Source of the DNA: an uncultured Bacilli bacterium
GTDB lineage: Bacteria > Bacillota_I > Bacilli_A > RF39 > UBA660
Length of the DNA stretch: 64,000 nucleotides
Assembly: GCA_934096715.1 (NCBI GenBank)
Contig: CAKOMQ010000004.1
Location: 2,051 to 66,050, forward strand
Direction of reading: 5' to 3'
This document shows, in pieces, positions 734 to 46,473 of this stretch. A program made the position numbers and the translations under genes. The notes under the pieces were generated by a model, which saw only the letters and a program-made list of their open reading frames with translations, had not been told where the DNA came from and did no database searches. The first letter of the stretch is position 1; each line of letters opens with the position of its first letter.

Positions 734-2413
734 ATGCAAAATAATAGTGCGACTAGCATAGTTGCTTTAGGTGGTCTTGGTGAAGTTGGTAAAAACATGT
801 ATGTTATTACCCATGAAGATGAAATACTTATTATAGATGCTGGAGTTATGTTTCCAGAAGTTGGACTTCTTGGAGTAGATTATGTTATTCAAGACTATAC
901 ATATTTAAAACAAAATGAAGATAAAATTAAAGGATTAATTATAACTCATGGACATGAAGATCATATTGGTGGTATACCTTTTTTATTAAATCAAGTTAAT
1001 ATACCTGTTATATATACACCTAAGATTGCGGAAGATTTAATTAAGAAGAAACTAGATGATCGAGTTATTAAGTATGATAATTATGTTACTATTACTAAAG
1101 ATTTAAAATTAAACTTTAAACATTTTAATGTAGAGTTTGTAAATACTACTCACTCTATTCCAGATAGTTTTGCTATAGTTGTTCATACACCAAATGGAAC
1201 AATATTTGAAACAGGAGATTTTAAGTTTGACTTGACACCTATTGGCCCTATGGCTGATATTCATAAAATGGCTTATTTGGGTAGTAAGGGTGTAACTCTT
1301 TTATTAAGCGATTCAACTAATGCTTTATCACATGGATTTTCTAATTCTGAAAGTGTTGTAGATGAAACTTTAAATGATCTTATTAGTAGACATCATGGAC
1401 GTGTAATTATAGCAACATTTGCATCTAATATTTATAGAATTAAACATATAGCAGAAACTTGTAAAGAATATAATCGTAAGATAGTTATATTTGGACGTAG
1501 TATGGAAGCTAGTATAGACTTAGCTATAAATAATGGTTTGATAAAAGATAAATCTATATTTATAGATATGGCTAAAGCTAAAAGCTTAAAGAAGAATGAA
1601 ATATGTATACTATGTACTGGATCTCAAGGAGAACCTTTGGCTGCTTTATCAAGAATTGCTAATGGAACACATAAACAAATATCTCTACTACCCGATGATT
1701 TAGTAATATTCTCTTCTTCTCCAATACCAGGTAATGGAGAAAGTATAAATAGAATTATAAACAAGTTATATTTAAAGGGAGTAAGAGTTGTATCTAATAG
1801 TGAATTTAGTGATATACATACATCTGGACATGCTAAAGAAGAAGAACTTAAATGGATGCTTCGTATAATTAAACCTGATTATTTTATGCCAATGCATGGA
1901 GAATTTAGAATGCTTAAGCAACACGCTAATATTGCAGAACTTTGTGGAATACCTAAAGAAAATACATTTATATGTTCTAACGGAGATGAAATATTACTTA
2001 AGGATGGTAAGGTATACCGTGGTGGTAAAATTACAGCTGGAGATGTTTATGTAGATGGATCTCGTGTTGGAGATGTAGGAAGTGTTGTAATTAAAGATCG
2101 TAAATTAATGAGTCAAGATGGTATACTAATTACTATATTAAATATTAATACTTTATCAAGAAGATTATTAATTAAGCCAAATGTTACAGCACGTGGTTTT
2201 GTCTTAGTAAATGATAATCCTGAACTTATGAATAAAATAGAAAGAAAGATTAATGATATTGTTGTTAATTTCTTAAAAAATAATACTTATAATTATAGTG
2301 ATTTAAAGAATCAAATAATACTAGAACTTCTTCCATTTATTAATGATTTAACTGGAAGAAGACCAATTATATTACCAGTAATTATGGAAGTAAATAAAAG
2401 TGGAGAGTTTTAA
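734..2413 (+). CDS. rnj: Ribonuclease J
   Basis: 559 aa. Metallo-beta-lactamase motif ITHGHEDHIGG, beta-CASP region and RNase J-type C-terminal domain; length typical of Firmicute RNase J. Confidence 0.9.
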   Translation: MQNNSATSIVALGGLGEVGKNMYVITHEDEILIIDAGVMFPEVGLLGVDYVIQDYTYLKQNEDKIKGLIITHGHEDHIGGIPFLLNQVNIPVIYTPKIAEDLIKKKLDDRVIKYDNYVTITKDLKLNFKHFNVEFVNTTHSIPDSFAIVVHTPNGTIFETGDFKFDLTPIGPMADIHKMAYLGSKGVTLLLSDSTNALSHGFSNSESVVDETLNDLISRHHGRVIIATFASNIYRIKHIAETCKEYNRKIVIFGRSMEASIDLAINNGLIKDKSIFIDMAKAKSLKKNEICILCTGSQGEPLAALSRIANGTHKQISLLPDDLVIFSSSPIPGNGESINRIINKLYLKGVRVVSNSEFSDIHTSGHAKEEELKWMLRIIKPDYFMPMHGEFRMLKQHANIAELCGIPKENTFICSNGDEILLKDGKVYRGGKITAGDVYVDGSRVGDVGSVVIKDRKLMSQDGILITILNINTLSRRLLIKPNVTARGFVLVNDNPELMNKIERKINDIVVNFLKNNTYNYSDLKNQIILELLPFINDLTGRRPIILPVIMEVNKSGEF

Positions 2414-2443
2414 AAAGGTTAAACAGAAATTTGTTTAACCTTT
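2412..2443. repeat. Direct repeat copy 1 (32 bp): the rnj/rpe terminator hairpin, duplicated by IS insertion
   Basis: aaaaaggttaaacagaaatttgtttaaccttt starts 1 nt after the T of the rnj stop. An identical 32-mer recurs at 3614-3645. It is itself a hairpin (ggttaaac-N-gtttaacc). Confidence 0.85.
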
Positions 2444-3613
2444 CCTAAATTGAAATTTGAACCGCACCACTAGGGTGCGGCTTTTTGATATAATAAAGGA
2501 GCCAATTCCCGGCAAGGAGGCTCCTATATGAATTATAAACAATTAACAGAAAAAAAGAAAGTAGAAATTGATATTTTATTAGCACAAGGATTTTCAATGA
2601 GAGAAGTTGGAAGAAGACTTAATATAAGTCACTCTACTATATCAAGATATAAATCTGGTAAATATAAAAAAAGAAAAATAGATATAAATAAGAAATATGA
2701 AGTATTTATAAAATACTTATTTGACCATTATGACAGAAGAGTGTGTTCTATAGAAATATGTGTAAACAAATTTAAAAAAGGACATTTTTTTGCAAATTGT
2801 CCATCAGTTAAACAAGTATATAATTGGATAAATGACGGTAAAATATTTTTGAGTAAAGATAAATTATGCTATAAAAAAAGAAAAGGTAAAAAAACTGGTA
2901 TGATGGCACATTTTAAATGGAACTTAAATAATAAAACGGTGTTACCAATAAGTTTAAGACCAAAGTATATTGAAGATAGAACAGAAGTAGGACATTTGGA
3001 AATAGACTCTATAATTGGAAAAAGAAACGAATATGACACAATAGTTTCAATAGTAGATAGATGCACAAGAAAATTATGGTTAATAAAATCAGAATATAAA
3101 AACGAATATTATACAAATAAATTAATATATGATTTCATAATAAAAAATGATATAGAAGTAAAATCTATAACAGTAGATAATGGACTAGAATTTAATGCGC
3201 TAGGAATAGCAGCGAAGAAGCTTGGAGTAAAACTATATAAATGTGATCCTTATTGTTCATTTCAAAGGGGGACAAATGAAAGAATGAATGCAATGGTAAG
3301 GAGATTTTTACCAAAAGGTTACTCATTAAAAACAGTAACACAATGTTATTTAGACAACATAGCCTTTGAAATAAATTATATGCCAAAAAAAATATTTGGA
3401 TTTAAAAATGCATTTGAAAAAGAATTAGAATATTAATTTTATTTGTAAGAAAATTATAATATATTCTGTTTTTTAGTCAATGATAAAATAAACACAAAGT
3501 GTCATTGACAAAAAACCAGAATATATAAAAAAAGTAATAACAAATAAAATAATTGACTAATATTTATTATCTGATAAAATTAAATTAAATGGTGCGGTTG
3601 AAATTACAATATA
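2444..3613 (+). mobile_element. IS30-family insertion sequence (~1.17 kb), IS1630-like behaviour
   Basis: Single DDE transposase ORF. Imperfect terminal inverted repeats: attgaaatttgaaccgcacca (2449-2469) versus the reverse complement of tggtgcggttgaaattacaat (3590-3610), 19 of 21 matched by eye. Flanked by a perfect 32-bp direct repeat. An internal hairpin ccgcaccactagggtgcgg plus T-run sits just inside the left end. Confidence 0.85.
2528..3436 (+). CDS. IS30-family DDE transposase
   Basis: 302 aa. N-terminal HTH (GFSMREVGRRLNISHSTISRY). Catalytic regions EIDSIIGK, TVDNGLEFN and QRGTNERMNAMVRRFLPKG match the IS30 D-D-E pattern. Confidence 0.9.
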   Translation: MNYKQLTEKKKVEIDILLAQGFSMREVGRRLNISHSTISRYKSGKYKKRKIDINKKYEVFIKYLFDHYDRRVCSIEICVNKFKKGHFFANCPSVKQVYNWINDGKIFLSKDKLCYKKRKGKKTGMMAHFKWNLNNKTVLPISLRPKYIEDRTEVGHLEIDSIIGKRNEYDTIVSIVDRCTRKLWLIKSEYKNEYYTNKLIYDFIIKNDIEVKSITVDNGLEFNALGIAAKKLGVKLYKCDPYCSFQRGTNERMNAMVRRFLPKGYSLKTVTQCYLDNIAFEINYMPKKIFGFKNAFEKELEY

Positions 3614-3645
3614 AAAAAGGTTAAACAGAAATTTGTTTAACCTTT
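3614..3645. repeat. Direct repeat copy 2 (32 bp); also the functional terminator and last codons of rpe
   Basis: Identical to 2412-2443. The rpe stop codon (3637-3639) lies inside it. Confidence 0.85.
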
Positions 3646-4257
3646 TAATATGCTTATATTTTTATTATAGTTATCACTCATACATATATAAGAGCCACTT
3701 ACAACTATATCTACTTTTTTATTTCTTAAATATTCAATTGATTCTTCGTTTATACCACCATCTATACTTACTGTAATATCTAAATTACTTAGATAGTCTA
3801 ATTTATCTAAGACACTTGGAATAAATTCTTGTCCACCACGACCTGGTACAACGCTCATAATAAGTACAATATCTATATCATTTAAGTAATCATCTATAAT
3901 ATGGATATCTTCATCTGGATTAATAGCAAGTCCGACTAAGAAACCCATACTTTTTATAAGTTCAATAGTTTTCTTAACATTTTTGCTTGCACTGGGGTGA
4001 AATATAATATCATTTATGTTTAACATTCCTATTTTGCTTATATATTTATCAGGATTATTTACCATTAAGTGAACATCTAAGCTTTTCTTGGTAAAACTTA
4101 AATCCTTTATGACTTCACCTATTGTAAAGTTTTTACATTCAACATAATTTCCATCCATCAAATCAACATGAATATAGTCAGCTATACTTTCGTCAATAAG
4201 TTTTATTGTTTCACTTTTTTTATGTTTACTAGTTATATAACTTACTGATACTTTCAT
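3637..4257 (-). CDS. rpe: Ribulose-phosphate 3-epimerase
   Basis: 206 aa. HVDLMDG, HLMV, PGRGGQEF and SIDGGIN motifs; conserved position after rsgA. Confidence 0.85.
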   Translation of the reverse strand: MKVSVSYITSKHKKSETIKLIDESIADYIHVDLMDGNYVECKNFTIGEVIKDLSFTKKSLDVHLMVNNPDKYISKIGMLNINDIIFHPSASKNVKKTIELIKSMGFLVGLAINPDEDIHIIDDYLNDIDIVLIMSVVPGRGGQEFIPSVLDKLDYLSNLDITVSIDGGINEESIEYLRNKKVDIVVSGSYICMSDNYNKNISILKG

Positions 4258-11675: not shown

Positions 11676-11697
11676 AAAAAAGCAACCTAAGTTGCTT
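11676..11697 (-). terminator. Intrinsic terminator between the surface-protein gene and fmt
   Basis: Minus strand reads aagcaac-ttag-gttgctt followed by a T-run. Confidence 0.6.
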
Positions 11698-11706
11698 AAC
11701 ACCGGA

Positions 11707-11733
11707 TGCAAAATCGACTGCGTCGATTTTGCA
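11707..11733 (-). other. 12-bp-stem hairpin 16 nt after the stop codon of the 515-aa gene, upstream of its real terminator
   Basis: tgcaaaatcgac-tgc-gtcgattttgca is a perfect inverted repeat and lies inside the GC-elevated tract. Confidence 0.6.
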
Positions 11734-11748
11734 CTATTATCGAACGCC

Positions 11749-13296
11749 CTATTGGATCATGAACGGATCGTCCAAAGAGCCTTCACCGCTTAAAAATGCT
11801 TGATTCGACGTAAGATAGAAGACTGGGCGCACCGCACCAGAAACATTCACGTAGTAGTTGGACACGTAACCATTGTCATTGACACCCCACGCATAGCGGT
11901 AGCCACTACCATTAACTCCAGTACGAGAAAGTGTCCATTCCCATGAATCCTTTGCAGTATCATTATTACTTGGATGCATCCAGCCTGTTTTTAGTGTATC
12001 TTTGTTATCAACAGTACTTCCTGTTATTGCTAAAGCACTTGAACCTAATGATAATGTATAATCACTTACATACATTAAGCCTATTTTTGCACTTGGTGTT
12101 GTCCATTCGCCAACTGTACTTGTTTTCGTACTTCTATTCATTTCATGTAAATATATTTGGCCTGGTGTTAAACTGATGTAATAATTTGGTCCATTACTTC
12201 CATCGGATGTTTTTGTATTTACTGCACTCCATGTCCAATTTTCTATACGATTACTCCATTCTGTATTTTGCAAGTAATCATATTTTGCACTTGTTAAGAA
12301 ATAACTTCCGTTAAGTCTTTTATACATATCACTGTTTTCCCATGATATATCTGTATTATAGTCCGGATGCCATGCATAGTAACCTATTTCATTACCTAAT
12401 TGTTTATATTTAATTAGTTTAACATGGCTATCTCCATTTGCATCTGAGAATACTCCAAGCACTCTATACATATATTTATCTTGATTTGCTGTACAAGTAG
12501 ATTTATCTGTTGTACCAAAACATATAAAGTTATTTGGATTTGTACTAGTTCCTACTGCCCCACTTCCTGTATATCTATAGCCATCGCCTTCTAGTCCACT
12601 TTGCCATAATTTTCCACTTGCTATTAATTTATCTGCTAGTGGTGTTGAGTCAGCATGTAATTTACAAGAAAATGCTTTTTTATCTCCACTTGTATATGGT
12701 TCTATTTTTATTGTGTATGAATTACCTACTAATTTATCTTGAGTAGTTGCTGTATTTGTTATACTACTTGTTAGTGGTATTGATACACTATTTCCTTTTG
12801 TTAAGTTTTTAATTTCTCCACTTACTATAATGCCTGTAGTTCCAGCAGTTGTAAGTTCCTTAAGAGTCATAGTCTTATCTCCTACTACTACTTTTACATC
12901 ATTATCTGAGTTATCAGTGATTGGAGTTGTTACAGTTGCTGTTACTTTATAATTATAAGTACAGTCTAGTGCTTCATCTCCTTCTGGTAAACTTGCTGTT
13001 GCTAATATGTAATTTGGATTAGTAGTTAGTGCTAGTCCATTTTCATTTTCATTAGCATAATAAGTCTTTCCTGCATTTGCTTGACTCATTAAGTTTGCAT
13101 CTAAATTTAAATATAACTTAGATGTTTTAATTTGCATTGTTGGATTTCCTAAGTTGTTGGCTTTACCTGTTACCTTAGCACCTGTTTGATCATTACTTGC
13201 ATTAATACTAAAGTACGCATATGTTCCACCTATTAATAGTAATAGAGCAAAAGTGAATGCTACAACTATAAGTTGCTTTTTGTTCATATTTTTCAT
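11749..13296 (-). CDS. Secreted surface protein, paralog A: SipW-type signal peptide, TasA/camelysin-like region and DUF1566/C-type-lectin-like C-terminal module
   Basis: 515 aa. N-terminus KKQLIVVAFTFALLLLIGGTYAYFS matches the SipW-cognate signal class (GGT.A.F). C-terminal ...EWTLSR...YAWGVNDNGYV...GAVRPVFYL resembles the W..S...AW.V...G.....VR.V ending of DUF1566/DUF6273-type lectin-like domains. Confidence 0.75.
   Translation of the reverse strand: MKNMNKKQLIVVAFTFALLLLIGGTYAYFSINASNDQTGAKVTGKANNLGNPTMQIKTSKLYLNLDANLMSQANAGKTYYANENENGLALTTNPNYILATASLPEGDEALDCTYNYKVTATVTTPITDNSDNDVKVVVGDKTMTLKELTTAGTTGIIVSGEIKNLTKGNSVSIPLTSSITNTATTQDKLVGNSYTIKIEPYTSGDKKAFSCKLHADSTPLADKLIASGKLWQSGLEGDGYRYTGSGAVGTSTNPNNFICFGTTDKSTCTANQDKYMYRVLGVFSDANGDSHVKLIKYKQLGNEIGYYAWHPDYNTDISWENSDMYKRLNGSYFLTSAKYDYLQNTEWSNRIENWTWSAVNTKTSDGSNGPNYYISLTPGQIYLHEMNRSTKTSTVGEWTTPSAKIGLMYVSDYTLSLGSSALAITGSTVDNKDTLKTGWMHPSNNDTAKDSWEWTLSRTGVNGSGYRYAWGVNDNGYVSNYYVNVSGAVRPVFYLTSNQAFLSGEGSLDDPFMIQ
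11821..11930 (-). other. GC-rich, adenine-poor NNY-codon patch in paralog A (DGR variable-region-like)
   Basis: Hand count gives 59 G+C in 11801-11920 (120 nt), against a very AT-rich surrounding. Of the 31 codons between LSR and RPVFYL, only one ends in A. Genome-atypical codons cgc, gcg, ggc, gtc, tac and aac are used. Confidence 0.4.
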
Positions 13297-14841: not shown

Positions 14842-16377
14842 TTATGGAGTAATCATATATGGATCAGTAAGTGTACCTGTACCAGTTTTTCTTGTTACTT
14901 TACTGTCTAAATAGAATACTGGTCTTATTCCGTAGTCTGTTGTAACATTTGTATTAGTGATATAACCATTTGGATTAATAGTCCAGCTATAATTTGTTGT
15001 TGCACTAGATGTTCCTAAACCATAAGATGCTGTAGTATGTTCTGTATTATAGTTACCTGTAGTGTTTCCATATTTATTATTACCTAGGAATAACCAACTA
15101 GTTTTTAATGTACTTTGATTAGAATAAGTCCCAGTAGTCATACTCTTAGCTGTATCTCCTAGTGATAATACGTAATCACTAACATTCATAGCAACTATTT
15201 TTAATGTGTTATCATGCCATTGTCCAGTTGTTGTTGTTTTTCCAGTTCTATTCATTTCATGTAAATATATTTGACTTGGAGATAAACTATTATAGTAATT
15301 AGGACCACCTTCAAGCGTTAAAGTAACTACATCTCTTTTGCCTTCTTCACTTATGGCTGCTAACCACGCACTAGATTCTCCGAGATAATCGTATGTTTGA
15401 TTACCAATAAATAAATTTGGCATAGATGTTGCACTAGGAGAATTCCCATTTAGTCTATTAGATAATACATTTGGACCGAAAGATAGAATTCCTTGACCAA
15501 ATCTAGTACCTGCTGTAAATGCAGCGTTTGATGATAAACTAGTTAGTTTTATAAGTTTAGTATAGTTATCAAATACGCCAATAATTCGATACATATATTT
15601 ATCAGGATTACTTTTACATGTTTCTTGATCTATTGTACCAAAACAGACAAAGTTAGATGGAGTTGTACTTGTATTGTAGGCTCCTGTTCCAACAAAACGA
15701 TAGCCATCACCTTCTAGTCCACTTTGCCACATATTACCATTCTTGATTAAATAATCTGATAAAGGAATTTCTTTTTCGGTATCTTCTTCAGGTATATCTG
15801 GATCAATATACTTACCAGTATTAAGATTATTTTTACCATAGTAATTTATAATAAAATCATTATAAGTATAGTTATTATCTTTACTTTCTTTCTCTTTTTC
15901 ATAAACAGGAATAACTATTTTTAAATACGTATTACCTTTATTATTATTATCTCCTAGTTTAATAGATATATTTTCTACATCTACTTCTAAGTCTTCGCTT
16001 AATCCCCAGATAGCGTTCTTTCCATAAGCATCATTATAAACTATTTCATATAAATCATTTTCTTCTTTATTAACAAGAATAATAGATTTACCTACTAAAG
16101 TATTTATCGTAATCATTGTTTTATCATCACTTAATATAACTGGTATTGGTTCTTCATCGTTGTAAGCTAGACCAAAGTGAATTAAATTCTCTTGTACATT
16201 ATCAACAAGAAGGTCTCTCATAACATTGTCATCATAGTTTTTATCCATTTCATTAAAAGCTAAATTATTTACTAAGGTATGCAAAAAAATTAATATTACA
16301 GATAATAATACTATACTTACTATAAGTTCTATTAATGTCATCCCTTTATTATTTTTCATATAATTATATTCTATCAT
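14842..16377 (-). CDS. Modular type IV pilin-like protein, paralog B: prepilin N-terminus plus the same DUF1566/lectin-like module
   Basis: 511 aa. Class III signal KNNKG/MTLIELIVSIVLL with Glu at +5. The C-terminal ~300 aa align with paralogs A and C (MWQSGLEGDGYRF...FVCFG...DKYMYRIIGVF...GIRPVFYL). The real start may be the internal Met at 16359. Confidence 0.75.
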   Translation of the reverse strand: MIEYNYMKNNKGMTLIELIVSIVLLSVILIFLHTLVNNLAFNEMDKNYDDNVMRDLLVDNVQENLIHFGLAYNDEEPIPVILSDDKTMITINTLVGKSIILVNKEENDLYEIVYNDAYGKNAIWGLSEDLEVDVENISIKLGDNNNKGNTYLKIVIPVYEKEKESKDNNYTYNDFIINYYGKNNLNTGKYIDPDIPEEDTEKEIPLSDYLIKNGNMWQSGLEGDGYRFVGTGAYNTSTTPSNFVCFGTIDQETCKSNPDKYMYRIIGVFDNYTKLIKLTSLSSNAAFTAGTRFGQGILSFGPNVLSNRLNGNSPSATSMPNLFIGNQTYDYLGESSAWLAAISEEGKRDVVTLTLEGGPNYYNSLSPSQIYLHEMNRTGKTTTTGQWHDNTLKIVAMNVSDYVLSLGDTAKSMTTGTYSNQSTLKTSWLFLGNNKYGNTTGNYNTEHTTASYGLGTSSATTNYSWTINPNGYITNTNVTTDYGIRPVFYLDSKVTRKTGTGTLTDPYMITP

Positions 16378-16437
16378 TATTTTTTCTATTAGACAATCTT
16401 AATATATTTTGTTATTATATATATAAGGATAAAGAAT

Positions 16438-16983
16438 ATGAAGAATAAAAATGGATTTGTATCAATGACAACTATTTTAACATTAGTATTAACTGTAAGT
16501 AGTCTTCTCTTACTTAATTTAACTGTGCTTATAGATGAAAAAGCGCTTACTAATAAAATAAAAGATAATTCTAGAAATAATATTAAGTCTTCTGATGAGC
16601 CTTATTGTTATTGGTCTGATGAAACTACATTAGTTATACCTTATGAAAGTAAAGATAAAAAAGCTAGTGGTACTGTTTCTTTAAATTGTTATCATCCTAA
16701 TACGATATCATTAAAGAATGACTTAACACTTGAAGGATTAGCTAATAAAGAATTATATAAGTCTTCTAGTGATTATTTATCAATAGATGAAATAAATCCT
16801 AGCGAGTTATCTGGTGGTTATGGATATAAAATTATATTCTCTATTAGTAGTACTAAATTAACTAGTGATGATAATTATTACACAATTACTTTAAACGAAG
16901 GTTTATTTTGTTATAACAATATTTGTAATGAAGAAGTTGTTAGTAACAAGATAAAAGTGGCGAAGGAGTATAATCATGAATAA
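16438..16983 (+). CDS. Minor pseudopilin-like protein (non-canonical N-terminus)
   Basis: 181 aa. KNKNGFVSMTTILTLVL has a Gly-Phe cleavage-like site followed by a hydrophobic helix but lacks Glu+5. Overlaps the next pilin gene by 8 nt. Confidence 0.4.
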   Translation: MKNKNGFVSMTTILTLVLTVSSLLLLNLTVLIDEKALTNKIKDNSRNNIKSSDEPYCYWSDETTLVIPYESKDKKASGTVSLNCYHPNTISLKNDLTLEGLANKELYKSSSDYLSIDEINPSELSGGYGYKIIFSISSTKLTSDDNYYTITLNEGLFCYNNICNEEVVSNKIKVAKEYNHE

Positions 16984-18589
16984 TAAGGGATTTACATTAA
17001 TCGAGTTAATTGCTGTTCTTGCAATAATGGGAATACTTTTTACTATAGGTATTGCGACTTTTAATTTTAAGGGTAATACAGAAGAAGATACTAAGAAAGC
17101 TAATATAAATACTGTTGAAAAAGCAATAAATGTTTATTATAAAATATTATCTCAAAAAGGAAAATTAAATTATTCTAAAGATAGCGAAGAAACAGCGTTT
17201 TGTGTATCTTATGAAAATCTTGTAAAGAATGGATATTTAGTGGAAAGTAAAATACCTACTGATGAAAATGGCAATAAATATAAGTATGCTACTGTTACTA
17301 TTAAGAATAATCAATTAGCATATGTTAATACAAATCTTACAGAATCTTGTAAAAAAGAAAAAACTAATATAACACCTATTAAAAATAAAAGTGGTAATCA
17401 AGGAGAAAATCAAGATGATACTGAAACAGTAAACTCTTATGAATTTAATAGTACTATAAATCAAACAAGTGAGAATACTTATAAAGTTGATTCTAAATTT
17501 AGAATGACTATTAGTCAAAATATTGATATAACTGAGTATAGACCTATTTATACATTTATTGTTCTTGATAGGTCTGGATCTATGGGTGGATCTCCTATAG
17601 CAAATGCAGTTGCATCCATTAAAAATCTTACTACTGATTTATATAATGAAAATATGAAAGATGCTCCCAATCCAGATAAACCAAATAATAAACCTATTTA
17701 TTGTACGAGCGTAGTTAAATTTGGTGATTCATCATATGTAGAAACTCCATTTACTCACAATATTATTTCTCCAGGAACTAGTGCTCCTGACGGAACAATT
17801 TATTATATGCCAATGCAATTAATAAATAATACTCTTTTATCAAATATGAGTGCTTATATAGCTGGTGACTCGGATGTTTGCAAAAATGCTTTAAATAATA
17901 ATCCGTTATACTTTATCTTATTTTTAAGTGATGGTGGTCCATTTGATGGATATGGTGAAAGTGGCGACGGTACAACTTTAAAATATAATACTGAGCAATT
18001 GAAGGCAAAAGGTGTTTATATTTTTACAATCAGTTATGGTTATGGAAATAATTCACATCTTAAATGTATGGCATCTAAAGTTCTTGGTGAAAACGAAACA
18101 TACACTGATGCAGATTATAAACTATGTAATACATATTCAGATGCATCTAAATTAATTGGATATAACGCAACTGGTACTGGTACAAAAGTATTCTATTTTG
18201 AATCTAGTCAACAACAATCTTCTCTCTCTGAAATATTTAAAACTTTTAGTACTGTAGCTAGAAAAGAATCTCAAAAAACTGAATATGATAAAATTAATAT
18301 AACATTTACTATTAATAATAAGTATTTTAAATTAGATAATAATAGCAAAGAATTTAAAAGTTCTATGAATATAGATTCTATGGAAACTAAATTTTTAACA
18401 AGTAAAAATGATTTTAATATAACATTAATTAATGATAACTTTGAAGGAACAGAAATAAAACTATTTAAAAGTATTAAACTTGAATTTATAGATTATGATG
18501 GTAAAGTGGATAATAAAACTGTTGAAGTACCAGAAAACCAACTACCTAAAGTTAATGTATATAAGTATAAAGACACCTTAATCAACTAG
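16976..18589 (+). CDS. Modular type IV pilin with von Willebrand factor A module
   Basis: 537 aa. Canonical NNKG/FTLIELIAVLAIMGIL prepilin motif, MIDAS-like VLDRSGSMGG (DxSxS) and LFLSDGGP. Confidence 0.8.
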   Translation: MNNKGFTLIELIAVLAIMGILFTIGIATFNFKGNTEEDTKKANINTVEKAINVYYKILSQKGKLNYSKDSEETAFCVSYENLVKNGYLVESKIPTDENGNKYKYATVTIKNNQLAYVNTNLTESCKKEKTNITPIKNKSGNQGENQDDTETVNSYEFNSTINQTSENTYKVDSKFRMTISQNIDITEYRPIYTFIVLDRSGSMGGSPIANAVASIKNLTTDLYNENMKDAPNPDKPNNKPIYCTSVVKFGDSSYVETPFTHNIISPGTSAPDGTIYYMPMQLINNTLLSNMSAYIAGDSDVCKNALNNNPLYFILFLSDGGPFDGYGESGDGTTLKYNTEQLKAKGVYIFTISYGYGNNSHLKCMASKVLGENETYTDADYKLCNTYSDASKLIGYNATGTGTKVFYFESSQQQSSLSEIFKTFSTVARKESQKTEYDKINITFTINNKYFKLDNNSKEFKSSMNIDSMETKFLTSKNDFNITLINDNFEGTEIKLFKSIKLEFIDYDGKVDNKTVEVPENQLPKVNVYKYKDTLIN

Positions 18590-18596
18590 GTGTCTT

Positions 18597-19163
18597 TTAT
18601 AATTCAAGATATACATATTCATAATGACACATATCAGCATTATTTTTACATATACTTTCTTGATCATCTACTAAAAATTCAAATAGAAGTATGGGCTTAT
18701 CGGATTCTATTTTATTTATGTATTTAATACCAGATAAATTTAAATATATATAATTACATTTAGAATTATTAAAATCTGTTAAACAATTTTCTTTATATTT
18801 AGATATATCACCTATTAAATAGATATTATTTATATCTAAGTTATTTTGATTAATTAGATAATCTTCTTTATAACTTATATCTACGTTACTGGAATTCACT
18901 CCTATATTAGTTATAAGTTTATTATCATTTACTAAGGTACTTAACTTATCAAAATTATCTATATAATCTTCCATTACCCTTTTCATATAAAAAGATTTAT
19001 ATAAACTACTTACATTATCTTCTCTTTTTTGTTCCTTAGCTTTATTATATAGTTTAAAATACATGTTAAAAAGTAATAGTAATGAAGTCATTAATATTAT
19101 TATAGCAATTATTGTTTCAATAAATATAAATCCATTTTTTTCTCTACTCTTTATCATAATCAA
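18597..19163 (-). CDS. Type IV prepilin-like protein
   Basis: 188 aa. REKNG/FIFIETIIAIIIL with Glu at +5. Confidence 0.55.
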   Translation of the reverse strand: MIMIKSREKNGFIFIETIIAIIILMTSLLLLFNMYFKLYNKAKEQKREDNVSSLYKSFYMKRVMEDYIDNFDKLSTLVNDNKLITNIGVNSSNVDISYKEDYLINQNNLDINNIYLIGDISKYKENCLTDFNNSKCNYIYLNLSGIKYINKIESDKPILLFEFLVDDQESICKNNADMCHYEYVYLEL

Positions 19164-44813: not shown

Positions 44814-46385
44814 CTATTCTAAAATAAATGGATTTTCTAGAGAGCCATCTCCATCAGCAGTAATTTTAACATCATTAGTTAGATAGAAGACTGGGCGCGA
44901 ACCATACGCACCGACCACAATGTCGCTGTTGAAATAGCCACTACTATCGACAAGCCACGCATGAAAGCGACCACCACCAGCCCCATGACGAGAAAGCGCC
45001 CATTCATAAGTGCTCTTTGTAGTATCATTATTACTTTGATGCATCCAGCCTGTCTTTAATAAAGTATAATTAGTGTCAGTACCTGTTGTTAATGCTAACG
45101 CACTTGACCCCAATGACAATGCATAATCACTTGCATACATTAAGCCTATCTTTCCTGTTGGTGTTGTCCATACACCACCATTACAATTTACTGCAGTTTG
45201 TCCATAGTTCTTACATAATGTTTCTGATGATGTTTTATGCATTTCATTTAAGTATATTCCTTTTGGAGAACTTCTATAATAACTAGTATTATTTGTTTGG
45301 TCTTCATATGTTTTTGTATTTACTGCACTCCATGTCCAATTTTCTATTTTATTTGACCATGTAGTATTTTGTAAATAATCATATGTTGTATTTGTTAAGA
45401 AATAACTTCCGTTAAGTCCTTTATACATATCACTGTTTTCCCATGATATATCATTGTAAAGATCTGAGTTCCATGCAGTTGATACCAATTGTTTATATTT
45501 AATTAGTTTAACATGATTTTCTCCGCTTGCATCTGAGAATACTCCTAATACTCTATACATATATTTATCTTGATTTGCTGTACATGTAGATTTATCTGTT
45601 GTACCAAAGCATATAAAGTTATTTGGATTTGTACTAGTTCCTACTGCACCACTACCTGTATATCTATAACCATCTCCTTCTAGTCCACTTTGCCATAATT
45701 TTCCACTTGCGATTAAATGATCTGCTAGTGGTGTTGAATCAGCATGTAGTTTGCAAGAAAATGCTTTTGTATCCCCGCTTGTATATGGTTCTATATTTAT
45801 TGTGTATGAATTACCCACTAGTTTATCTTGTGTATTTGCAGTATTTGTTACACTACTTGTTAGTGGTATTGATACACTTTGTACTTTTGTTAAGTTTTTG
45901 ATTTCTCCACTTACTATAATGCCTGTAGTTCCTGCAGTTGTAAGTTCCTTAAGAGTCATAGTCTTATCTCCAACTACTACTTTAACATCATTATCTGAGT
46001 TATCAGTGATTGGAGTTGTTACTGTTGCTGTTACTTTATAATTATAAGTACAATCTACTGCTTCATCTCCTTCTGGTAATTGAGCTGTTGCTAATGTATA
46101 ATTTGGATTAGTAGTTAATGCTAGTCCACTTTCGTTTTCATTAGCATAATAAGTCTTGCCTGCATTTGCTTGACTCATTAGATTTGCATCTAAATTTAGA
46201 TATAACTTAGATGTTTTAATTTGCATTGTTGGATTTCCCAAGCTGTTTGCTTTACCTGCTACCTTTGCTCCTGTCTTATCGTTGCTCGCATTTATACTAA
46301 AGTATGCATATGTTCCACCTACTAATAGTAATAGAGCAAAAGTGAATGCAACTACTATTAGTTGCTTTTTTTCTAGTTTTTTCAT
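44814..46385 (-). CDS. Secreted surface protein, paralog C: SipW-type signal, TasA-like region and DUF1566/lectin-like module
   Basis: 523 aa. By my manual count, the first ~296 aa differ from paralog A at about 20 positions with no indels. The distal part is mosaic. The C-terminus is ...EWALSR...HAWLVDSSGYF...GSRPVFYL. Confidence 0.75.
   Translation of the reverse strand: MKKLEKKQLIVVAFTFALLLLVGGTYAYFSINASNDKTGAKVAGKANSLGNPTMQIKTSKLYLNLDANLMSQANAGKTYYANENESGLALTTNPNYTLATAQLPEGDEAVDCTYNYKVTATVTTPITDNSDNDVKVVVGDKTMTLKELTTAGTTGIIVSGEIKNLTKVQSVSIPLTSSVTNTANTQDKLVGNSYTINIEPYTSGDTKAFSCKLHADSTPLADHLIASGKLWQSGLEGDGYRYTGSGAVGTSTNPNNFICFGTTDKSTCTANQDKYMYRVLGVFSDASGENHVKLIKYKQLVSTAWNSDLYNDISWENSDMYKGLNGSYFLTNTTYDYLQNTTWSNKIENWTWSAVNTKTYEDQTNNTSYYRSSPKGIYLNEMHKTSSETLCKNYGQTAVNCNGGVWTTPTGKIGLMYASDYALSLGSSALALTTGTDTNYTLLKTGWMHQSNNDTTKSTYEWALSRHGAGGGRFHAWLVDSSGYFNSDIVVGAYGSRPVFYLTNDVKITADGDGSLENPFILE
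44889..45000 (-). other. GC-rich, adenine-poor NNY-codon patch in paralog C (DGR variable-region-like)
   Basis: Hand count gives 66 G+C in 44881-45000 (120 nt). None of the 30 codons between LSR and RPVFYL ends in A, and 13 of these 90 nt are A. Ends in the same 18-mer gcgcccagtcttctatct as paralog A. Confidence 0.4.
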
Positions 46386-46464: not shown

Positions 46465-46473
46465 CCCCCCCCC
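46465..46473. repeat. Homopolymeric C9 (G9 on the coding strand) tract ~80 nt upstream of paralog C
   Basis: cttg-ccccccccc-agtacgc. I saw no comparable G/C homopolymer elsewhere in the window. Confidence 0.9.

Follow-up and report, generated by a model that had tools for sequence, protein, structure and literature searches.

A candidate DGR-derived variable region at the 3' end of a secreted DUF6273-type protein gene in an uncultured Bacilli bacterium, probably a fixed copy in a dispersed paralog

Composition and elements at the 3' end of gene A

Gene A and its two paralogs, B and C, lie on the minus strand of the window, that is, the whole 64-kb stretch of DNA that was analyzed (Table 1). 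The interval 11801-11920 contained 59 G+C in 120 nt, exactly the count given in an earlier reading made from the letters alone (the sequence-only reading), against a mean of 31.6 (sd 6.6) per 120 nt over the window. Values of at least 55 G+C per 120 nt were found in just two regions of the 64 kb, with starts at approximately 11691-11870 (gene A 3' end) and at 44837-44941 (paralog C 3' end). Among the 31 codons of gene A between LSR and RPVFYL (codons 459-489), 24 were NNY, 6 ended in G, and 1 ended in A, and these 93 nt contained 19 A and 46 G+C. The earlier description of these codons as almost all NNT or NNC with one ending in A was correct for the single A-ending codon, whereas the NNY share was just 77%. 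The composition background consisted of 17,387 windows of 31 codons from 45 ORFs, with means per window of 16.4 NNY codons, 12.3 A-ending codons, 37.2 A, and 24.9 G+C. At most one A-ending codon combined with at least 45 G+C occurred in genes A and C only, and a GC content of about 50% with nearly zero A-ending codons was unique in the 64 kb to the 3' ends of these two genes. The composition patch of gene A is confirmed as real. The GC-rich stretch runs beyond RPVFYL up to the stop codon in A, but not in C. Paralog C has the same signature as A, a point missing from the earlier entry on gene A.

Table 1. Positions of the genes and sequence elements discussed (window coordinates)
Feature	Position	Strand	Description
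Terminator-like hairpin and T run	11680..11697	-	From a consensus scan
Inverted repeat	11707..11733	.	Perfect 12 bp, loop 3 nt, TGCAAAATCGAC GCA GTCGATTTTGCA; 15 nt past the gene A stop codon
GC-rich 3' module	11737..11832	-	IMH-like element, 'type 1' tail (TSNQAFLSGEGSLDDPFMIQ), stop codon, and 12 nt past the stop
IMH-like element GCGCCCAGTCTTCTATCT	11813..11830	-	3' border of the VR; exact in paralog C and live targets
VR-homologous stretch	11824..11931	-	108 nt, CTTTCTCGT...CGCCCA; residues 456-491; core of the GC-rich, A-poor NNY patch
Gene A	11749..13296	-	ORF, 515 aa; predicted secreted; N-terminal hydrophobic signal, C-terminal DUF6273-type domain
Paralog B	14842..16377	-	511 aa; prepilin-type N-terminus; DUF6273 C-terminus without VR signature; internal control
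Paralog C	44814-46385	-	523 aa
Paralog C VR-homologous patch	44892..44996	-	105 nt; same composition signature; followed by IMH-like block 44881-44898, then AT-rich 'type 2' tail

The loop encoded by the patch is rich in Gly, Tyr, Ser, and Asn, which favors some GC-containing codons, and the composition might accordingly be attributed to ordinary amino-acid selection or to chance. However, paralog B has a similar loop and uses ordinary, AT-rich codons for it, as had been pointed out before (GC 0.29-0.33 and A3 0.33-0.50 in the stretch homologous to the patch). In gene A, synonymous third positions shun A (1 of 31 codons versus 12 expected), and the anomaly was found elsewhere in none of the 17,387 windows. 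We give this explanation next to no probability.

The VR-homologous stretch of gene A aligned over its full 108 nt with both the template repeat (TR) and the variable region (VR) of a diversity-generating retroelement (DGR) in two sister strains, L017 and L018, and its end lies 73 nt from the stop codon. The 18-nt block shared by A and C, also noticed in the sequence-only reading, was present in exactly two copies in the window, both on the minus strand, where the chance expectation is none. In L017 and L018, the VR passes from ...GCGCCCAG into TCTTCTATCTTAC and the TR from the same ...GCGCCCAG into CTCTCTATAGAGC; this split directly after a common GC-rich run reads as IMH/IMH*-type divergence. 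The GC-rich tail as part of a longer TR was ruled out, because TR and VR part right after GCGCCCAG in both sister strains. The 96-nt 3' module of gene A was 99% identical to that of the live target beside the cassette in L018, which is of the same species (1 mismatch, GTGCGCCCAG to GGGCGTTCGATAA), and this homology stopped abruptly, exactly where the hairpin begins. The 12-bp hairpin itself, reported previously, folded as DNA with -12.9 kcal/mol (z = -3.0). Live targets have a GC-rich hairpin at the same position, unrelated in sequence (-15.4 kcal/mol in L018 and -14.2 kcal/mol in L017), and the hairpin of gene A may act as a DGR target-site cruciform. The terminator-like hairpin and T run is likely the transcription end of gene A. 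Rfam search of both gene regions and leaders gave no match. The DGR features seen for gene A were a VR at the 3' end, a GC-rich IMH-like border, and then a hairpin of putative function.

The DGR cassette of near-clonal strains

The sequence-only reading had reported no reverse transcriptase (RT), Avd, or TR in the window, and our searches agreed. In the 64-kb window, tblastn with family queries for RT, Avd, and a MutS_I-like ORF gave no E value below 0.3, TR plus spacer as a blastn query matched the two VR patches only, blastn of 15 TR cassettes gave noise apart from the VR, and a repeat search for a TR returned paralog-to-paralog repeats only. The RT, Avd, and template repeat that had been predicted to lie elsewhere were present in near-clonal strains, and a related assembly also carried the cassette. 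Its locus, which is absent from the window, is chromosomal, between two ABC-transporter genes and argS, and the order is MutS_I-like ORF, bAvd, RT, target gene, and TR plus spacer. Contig CDRRAO010000003.1 of GCA_977040245.1 contains the MutS_I-like ORF, bAvd, RT, a 508-aa target, and the TR, and its DGR-clade RT shares the contig with two family members. The contig of GCA_964327805.1 ends within the target gene, and consequently no TR could be read there. The RT matched RVT_1 and has IGNMTSQ and YMDD motifs. A bAvd gene was located immediately upstream of the RT in L010, L003, L017, L018, and L045. The Avd of L017 scored below the curated cut-offs (33.9 versus 40 bits for PF22296, E = 4.7e-8; 47.4 versus 80 bits for NF033474, E = 1.8e-12), and that of L003, with 54.6 bits, was the only one above the PF22296 cut-off. 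Acquisition of the entire cassette by horizontal transfer from a GC-rich source was ruled out because the RT and Avd genes have 20% GC.

At the cassette, TR-to-VR changes affected 16 of 34 adenines versus 0 of 74 other sites in GCA_977040245.1, and 13 of 31 versus 0 of 74 in a second case. Comparison of cassette-adjacent VRs with their own TR revealed 0/74, 1/74, and 0/74 non-adenine mismatches. L018 and L045 have identical TRs, and approximately 5,960 nt of the two loci are the same except for the poly-G length, 1 SNP, and 17 VR substitutions, 16 of which are at TR adenines. At the protein level, P0258 and P0260 differed at 1 of 456 N-terminal residues, 11 of 36 VR residues, and 0 of 26 tail residues.

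Searching public genomes with a TR-guess pattern turned up 15 AAY-rich templates, one of which adjoined bAvd and RT. TR-plus-spacer cassettes have the motif AAGATAGAGAACAAAG downstream of ...CGCCCAGCTCTCTATAGAGC; related rabbit-gut genomes contain several such cassettes apiece, and TR alleles differ between strains. A JGI metagenome scan with the IMH*-like sequence of the TR gave 0 matches in a collection from which the organism is apparently missing, and an IMG/VR scan with the VR scaffold also gave 0 matches. RT P0242 was found together with window-identical flanks in ERZ28615127, ERZ28614807, ERZ4561498, ERZ4567788, and ERZ27287344. Because of this co-occurrence in five samples, with flanks 99.3-100% identical to the window, the genome of the window itself appears to carry the cassette.

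Template differences and strain comparison at A and C

VR A differed from the TR of L017 at 17 of 34 template adenines and 13 of 74 other sites (Fisher p = 7e-4). Compared with the TR allele of its own species (L018), VR A is 3 nt longer and differs at 14 of 74 non-adenine sites; across the TRs, the concentration of its differences at adenines had p = 7e-4 to 3e-3. VR C differed from the TR of L018 at 19 of 31 adenines and 17 of 74 other sites (p = 2e-4), and from the known TRs at 13-17 of 74 non-adenine sites. The sequence-only reading had expected differences at template adenines only, and the 13-14 of 74 non-adenine sites that differ in VR A run counter to this. A live VR set against the TR allele of another strain has 9-12 non-adenine mismatches of 73-74, similar to A and C, and the mismatches alone are therefore no proof of inactivity. 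None of the 17 recovered TRs was cognate to VR A or VR C. A degenerate cognate-TR pattern of VR A had VR A as its sole match across all fetched loci and 0 matches in the JGI metagenomes, where the organism is apparently absent. A second TR allele could exist. At many third positions that are C, G, or T in the known TRs, A and C disagree with each other; therefore, one TR of known type cannot be the source of both.

VR A was identical in every other assembly reaching the locus (L029, L031, and L032 with full coverage and L030 in part), a comparison that samples a short timescale because the assemblies are near-clonal, with flanks 99.3-100% identical, and that uses metagenome consensus contigs, which hide low-frequency variants. 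Contigs encoding an Fmt protein identical to that of the window had 0 mismatches over the gene A VR, tail, and hairpin, and L029 differed from gene A of the window only at 12271-12460. VR C had 0 mismatches in nine other assemblies despite differing gene bodies, and these nine included both samples with differing live VRs. As a positive control, the cassette-adjacent VR had 17 differences between two otherwise identical loci. Variation among isolates confined to the patch, which the sequence-only reading had suggested looking for, was not what the strains revealed: hypervariability restricted to the VR among close strains was absent at loci A and C. VR A was invariant wherever it was reached, and between strains just as similar the copy beside the cassette varies at template adenines; by the refuting condition given in the sequence-only reading, copy A is therefore not an active VR, and gene A in the window is not being diversified at present. 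The earlier description of the patch as DGR-VR-like was correct as to type, since the patch is homologous to a bona fide VR located at the 3' end of a DUF6273-type (C-type-lectin-like) domain and has an IMH-like, GC-rich end, but activity is unsupported.

Gene A might instead be an active remote target, in which the DGR or a second template-plus-spacer cassette rewrites 11824-11931 in trans, too slowly for consensus assemblies. The live target has virtually the same IMH-like element and 96-nt 3' module, with a hairpin at the same position, other DGRs have remote targets (PMC7517822, PMC4891356), related Bacilli MAGs have several TR-plus-spacer cassettes per genome, and TR alleles vary by strain. 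However, VR variation was zero in the four other assemblies for A and the nine for C, as opposed to 17 sites at the cassette-adjacent VR of equally similar strains. The extra 3 nt and the 14 non-adenine differences of VR A relative to the TR allele of the species, the impossibility of deriving A and C from a single TR of known type, and the match of the cognate-TR pattern to VR A alone also oppose active rewriting, which we consider unlikely. The intact IMH-like element and hairpin that gene A retains are an observation against a fixed state.

The paralog family and the proposed origin of the patches

By homology, gene A belongs to a large paralog family that also holds the DGR target. Gene A had 561 homologs; the best 120 of the 561 were 62-100% identical across the aligned part, often with several per contig, and one related assembly contained at least six family paralogs. 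In an alignment of 104 homologs, entropy was highest at residues 459-489, where an invariant scaffold, EWTLSR.G....F.AW.V...G.V....V.....RPVFYL, is interspersed with variable positions that are nearly all NNY-codon residues. Gene A scored 12.5 bits for Pfam DUF6273, below the cut-off of 23.5, whereas paralog B (24.6 bits) and the related L006 target (28.0 bits) were above it. In the AF2 model of the gene A product, residues 240-515 had pLDDT mostly of 75-90, and the best BFVD structural matches were DUF6273 phage proteins (E = 3.6e-5, TM 0.65 on target). Foldseek of the full-length model against the PDB gave no C-lec match, the top match being the Thomasclavelia ramosa IgA peptidase with low TM, and a profile search of PDB sequences found nothing; the C-lec nature of DUF6273 was taken from PMC10743442. 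A SipW-type signal peptide model matched paralog C only, and weakly.

The paralogs have visibly mosaic gene bodies. P0002 and P0121 have the VR in common and different tails, and in 9 of 10 other 90%-identity family clusters the VRs were identical while the N-terminal parts varied. P0121, the closest homolog, is at another locus, adjoining def and ftsW; it is therefore not an ortholog of locus A and is uninformative on VR turnover there. Such mosaicism, the abrupt composition switch, and the sharp end of homology at the hairpin would agree with a segment recombined in from a GC-richer foreign genome, unrelated to retroelement mutagenesis, which was the alternative offered by the sequence-only reading. 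However, the nearest DNA relatives of the patch are the DGR VR, tail, and TR of near-clonal strains of the same very AT-rich organism, the differences of VR A to the TRs are concentrated at template adenines, and the residue spectrum across the family is the NNY set. We regard a foreign source as highly improbable. The recombination component of that alternative is in keeping with the 99% identity of the 96-nt module to the live target and with the mosaic gene bodies; its donor would be the DGR locus of the same species.

We consider it probable that the patch of gene A is a DGR target VR that now persists as a fixed copy within a dispersed paralog. The RT would copy an AAY-rich template RNA with misincorporation opposite adenines, and the cDNA would replace the last ~105-108 nt ahead of the IMH-like element in the adjacent target gene. 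Such rewriting would produce NNY codons, fewer adenines, and higher GC, which would account for the composition of the patch. The binding loops of A and C may have been written in this manner from older or different template alleles; the adenine bias of their differences and the NNY residue spectrum suggest that both were originally DGR-written. They would then have been retained as stable paralogs, and we infer dispersal from the gene beside the cassette, through either duplication or gene conversion. The tract copied into gene A would include the GC-rich tail and end at the hairpin. A more tentative proposal, which we think possible but doubtful, is a two-tier repertoire. One DGR-linked generator copy would be continually rewritten, and successful loop variants would be kept in a germline archive with VRs fixed across strains, made by gene conversion of VR plus tail and reshuffled by recombination just after RPVFYL; copies would perhaps be switched by a variable poly-G tract in the leader (phase variation).

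The DGR of Bordetella phage BPP-1 comprises bRT, bAvd, a TR, the VR of Mtd, IMH and IMH*, and a downstream hairpin. The sister strains share with BPP-1 a cassette whose TR-to-VR differences are adenine-specific and whose VR occupies the very 3' end of a target predicted to be C-type-lectin-like; a GC-rich, IMH-like sequence bordering the VR and its diverged, IMH*-like counterpart behind the TR; and a predicted Avd-type accessory protein alongside an RT containing (I/L)GxxxSQ. Unlike that of BPP-1, the cassette here is chromosomal rather than phage-borne, has the order accessory, Avd, RT, target, TR with an additional MutS_I-like ORF, and has its hairpin ~95 nt past the IMH-like element instead of directly after it; the copy in the window has no nearby TR or RT and is not variable. 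In cyanobacteria, remote variable-protein paralogs with remnant TR-VR homology are known, e.g., Nostoc all3226, and duplication and dispersal, with diversification lost after selection of a variant, have been proposed (PMC7517822). Genes A and C resemble these in being dispersed target paralogs whose C-lec 3' end is still TR-like with no RT nearby, and differ in phylum, N-terminal domains, and C-lec subfamily (DUF6273 here). Beyond the cyanobacterial case, live and frozen states were separated here by near-clonal strain comparison, which is direct evidence for their separation. DUF6273 and C-lec DGR targets have been described in gut phages, namely tentaclins and Mtd-like target2 proteins (PMC10743442), and in Faecalibacterium prophages (PMC11792537). 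The hypermutated module appears to be of the same domain family, C-type-lectin-like with the VR as a surface hairpin, but those targets are phage receptor-binding proteins in phage cassettes, whereas the carriers here are chromosomal, predicted secreted, and present in many copies. The TvpA DGR of Treponema denticola has several remote targets (PMC4891356). It likewise involves a surface-protein paralog family around the chromosome, served in Treponema by one RT and TR; its remote VRs count as live targets for that TR, whereas the remote copies tested here were invariant and TR-mismatched.

These findings indicate that, where the genome is very AT-rich, composition is enough to recognize a DGR footprint even with the retroelement far off. 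Hypermutation need not be ongoing where a DGR-like patch is present: one species contains both a live copy and frozen copies of the module, which strain comparison tells apart. For genes A and C, the appropriate annotation is secreted protein of DUF6273 type from the DGR-target family rather than pilin. The family lends itself to the question of how, in nature, DGR-made variants get fixed and multiply as stable paralogs, a process proposed for cyanobacteria and little documented in gut Firmicutes.

Composition of the gene A 3' end and variable residues of its family

Base composition shifted abruptly across the final ~65 codons of gene A. The interval 11801-11920 contained 59 G+C in 120 nt, compared with a window mean of 31.6 per 120 nt (sd 6.6), and elsewhere in the 64 kb only the 3' end of paralog C reached at least 55. 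Among the 31 codons from LSR to RPVFYL, 24 were NNY, six ended in G and one ended in A, although about 12 A-ending codons were expected. This combination was unique to genes A and C among 17,387 31-codon windows of 45 ORFs; paralog B encoded the homologous loop in ordinary codons. The analysis confirmed the GC-rich patch poor in A-ending codons that the sequence-only reading had described, together with the 18-nt block common to A and C and the 12-bp hairpin after gene A. As that reading had also stated, a search of the 64-kb window found no reverse transcriptase (RT), Avd or template repeat (TR).

Gene A had 561 homologs, the best 120 of which were 62-100% identical over the aligned part, often with several per contig. 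In an alignment of 104 homologs, entropy was low over most of the protein and maximal at residues 459-489, and the invariant scaffold was EWTLSR.G....F.AW.V...G.V....V.....RPVFYL. Positions between the scaffold residues were restricted almost entirely to Y, N, S, D, G, F, I, L, R, A, T, H, C, V and P, the set obtainable from AAY codons via adenine changes. The C-terminal domain of gene A resembled DUF6273, which has been described as C-type-lectin-like and as a target of diversity-generating retroelements (DGRs) in gut phages (PMC10743442).

Paralog B combined a prepilin N-terminus with a DUF6273 C-terminus and carried no variable-region (VR) signature. Its neighbours were further prepilin-type genes, one with a VWA domain, so that this region resembles a gene cluster for a pilus or pseudopilus. 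At a locus of another Bacilli MAG (L014), a TR-like sequence lay ~280 nt 3' of the stop codon of a pilin-like protein, and no RT was found in that 8-kb locus. The window also carried an IS30-like transposase ORF flanked by 77-nt inverted repeats (77% complementary).

Coordinates of features in the window and at related loci
Feature	Location	Coordinates	Remark
Gene A	window	11749-13296	minus strand, 515 aa
VR A	window	11824-11931	
Tract differing in L029	window	12271-12460	in gene A
Paralog C	window	44814-46385	
VR C	window	44892-44996	
Poly-G tract	window	46465-46473	C9 on + strand
Paralog B cluster	window	14842-19163	
VWA-domain gene	window	16976-18589	
IS30-like transposase ORF	window	2528-3436	within 2393-3666
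Inverted repeats	window	2393-2469, 3590-3666	
MutS_I-like ORF	L017	9315-9701	
MutS_I-like ORF	L003	2734-3156	
TR	L017	13418-13525	
TR	L018	7442-7546	

The DGR cassette and its live target

A template was guessed by placing AAN at the hypervariable codons of the scaffold, and one genome per species was scanned. The scan yielded 15 template-like sequences rich in AAY; rabbit-gut MAGs labelled 'uncultured Bacilli' contributed six, whose 3' ends were similar to the VR border of the window, and one of the 15 adjoined bAvd and RT. A search with this RT revealed a 57%-identical RT (motifs IGNMTSQ and YMDD) on CDRRAO010000003.1 (112,807 bp; assembly GCA_977040245.1), which also carried two family members. 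The order was MutS_I-like ORF, bAvd, RT, 508-aa family member and 108-nt TR, the TR starting 446 nt downstream of the VR start. Of the 34 template adenines, 16 were changed in the VR, against 0 of the 74 other positions. After the common GCGCCCAG, the VR went on as TCTTCTATCTTAC and the TR as CTCTCTATAGAGC, an arrangement of the IMH/IMH* type.

GC content was 20% in the RT and Avd genes and 47% in the TR; the GC richness of the patch therefore stems from the template and not from a foreign GC-rich donor. Non-DGR explanations, taken jointly, are very improbable.

The small ORF 5' of bAvd (128-140 aa, MutS domain I-like fold) was found in cassettes L017 and L003 and, at the corresponding position, in L018-L028 and L045. 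Its Pfam MutS_I score was 30 bits in L003 and 17 bits in L017; its role is presumably accessory.

The copy next to the cassette is live. Cassette loci L018 and L045, from two separate samples, had identical TRs and over ~5,960 nt differed only in poly-G length, one SNP and 17 substitutions within the VR, 16 of them at template adenines. The target proteins differed at 1 of 456 N-terminal residues, 11 of 36 in the VR and 0 of 26 in the tail.

P0242, the RT of sister strains (at least 90% identical to that of CDRRAO010000003.1), was present as an identical protein on 13 contigs, in all 13 at one locus, with two ABC-transporter genes on one side and argS on the other. Because five P0242 samples also had contigs with locus A or C flanks 99.3-100% identical to the window, and because a 96-nt segment of gene A that starts at GTGCGCCCAG, spans the stop codon and finishes at GGGCGTTCGATAA matched the L018 cassette-adjacent target at all but 1 base, we infer that the window's species has a P0242-type DGR elsewhere in its genome.

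Invariance and origin of copies A and C

The patch is probably a DGR-written VR, in kind as the sequence-only reading had proposed, and has an IMH-like border; the window copy was nevertheless invariant, and known TRs mismatched it at non-adenines. Contigs encoding an Fmt protein identical to that of the window showed 0 mismatches to gene A across its VR, tail and hairpin (VR A fully covered in L029, L031 and L032 and partially in L030; tail only in L033), and the differences of L029 were confined to one clustered tract. VR C had 0 mismatches in nine assemblies, including both samples with differing live VRs, while the paralog C gene bodies showed clustered, gene-conversion-like differences; the invariance of A and C refers to consensus contigs of near-clonal strains. 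Of ten further family clusters at 90% identity, nine had identical VRs with N-terminal parts that varied.

Against the two known TR alleles, VR A showed differences at 15-17 of the 31-34 adenine sites and 13-14 of the 74 other sites; its length exceeded that of the TR allele of its own species by 3 nt. VR C differed from known TRs at 13-17 of 73-74 non-adenine sites. Among the loci examined, the pattern obligatory for any TR cognate to VR A matched only VR A itself, and it had no match in JGI metagenomes. Copies A and C are thus probably frozen, being stable dispersed paralogs and not active targets. Gene A could be an active remote target if the genome held a second TR cassette, as related rabbit-gut MAGs hold several, but this is unlikely given that VR A was identical in all assemblies reaching it and that none of the 17 recovered TRs was cognate to the window VRs.

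The adenine bias of their differences to the TR (p = 7e-4 in A and 2e-4 in C), together with their NNY repertoire, suggests that copies A and C were originally written by a DGR from other template alleles; strains did differ in their TR alleles. Copying from the cassette locus via recombination is suggested by the 3' module of gene A, which is nearly identical to the live target and ends at the hairpin, and equally by the mosaic gene bodies and the P0002/P0121 pair. The family proteins P0002 and P0121 (L044) had identical VRs and different C-terminal tails (GC-rich type 1 versus AT-rich type 2), which indicates a recombination breakpoint directly after RPVFYL. In paralog C a DGR-type patch was likewise followed by the IMH-like block, unchanged in sequence, whereas the tail was of ordinary AT-rich composition and the terminator was plain.

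Template turnover, poly-G leaders and implications

Several TR-plus-spacer cassettes occurred per genome (L004, L006 and L010 in one rabbit-gut MAG, L008 and L015 in another; also L002); the 5' flank they had in common was promoter-like, and the spacer on their 3' side (…TATATACTAGGGAAGATAGAAGACAAAGATTATCT…) was conserved. A DUF6273 target gene lay immediately 5' of L006, L015 and L002, no DUF6273 gene adjoined L004 or L008, and bAvd and RT adjoined L010 only. This suggests that several dispersed templates are served by one RT. The TRs of L017 and L018 differed by a codon indel and roughly ten non-adenine differences despite RTs at least 90% identical; therefore, the template itself changes fast.

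The paralog C leader contained a coding-strand G9 ~80 nt 5' of the start codon, the sole G/C homopolymer of at least 7 in the 64 kb. The tract lies in a conserved leader common to most family members, also present in L017-L028 and L045, for which no Rfam match was found; the leader of paralog A was different and had no poly-G. Upstream of the live target the tract ranged from G9 to G13 among samples (G10 in L018 versus G11 in L045, otherwise identical as far as the tract). The tract may be a site of slipped-strand phase variation controlling expression.

Earlier work already covers DGRs, DUF6273/C-lec targets, remote targets and remnant paralogs, and A and C fit a scheme put forward for variable-protein paralogs of cyanobacteria, in which copies duplicate, disperse and cease to diversify (PMC7517822). 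The host, recovered from human-gut metagenomes, is an uncultured organism of very high AT content, with DGR relatives labelled Bacilli. For specialists, the interest lies in the clean split between one live copy and many frozen copies, together with the poly-G tracts.
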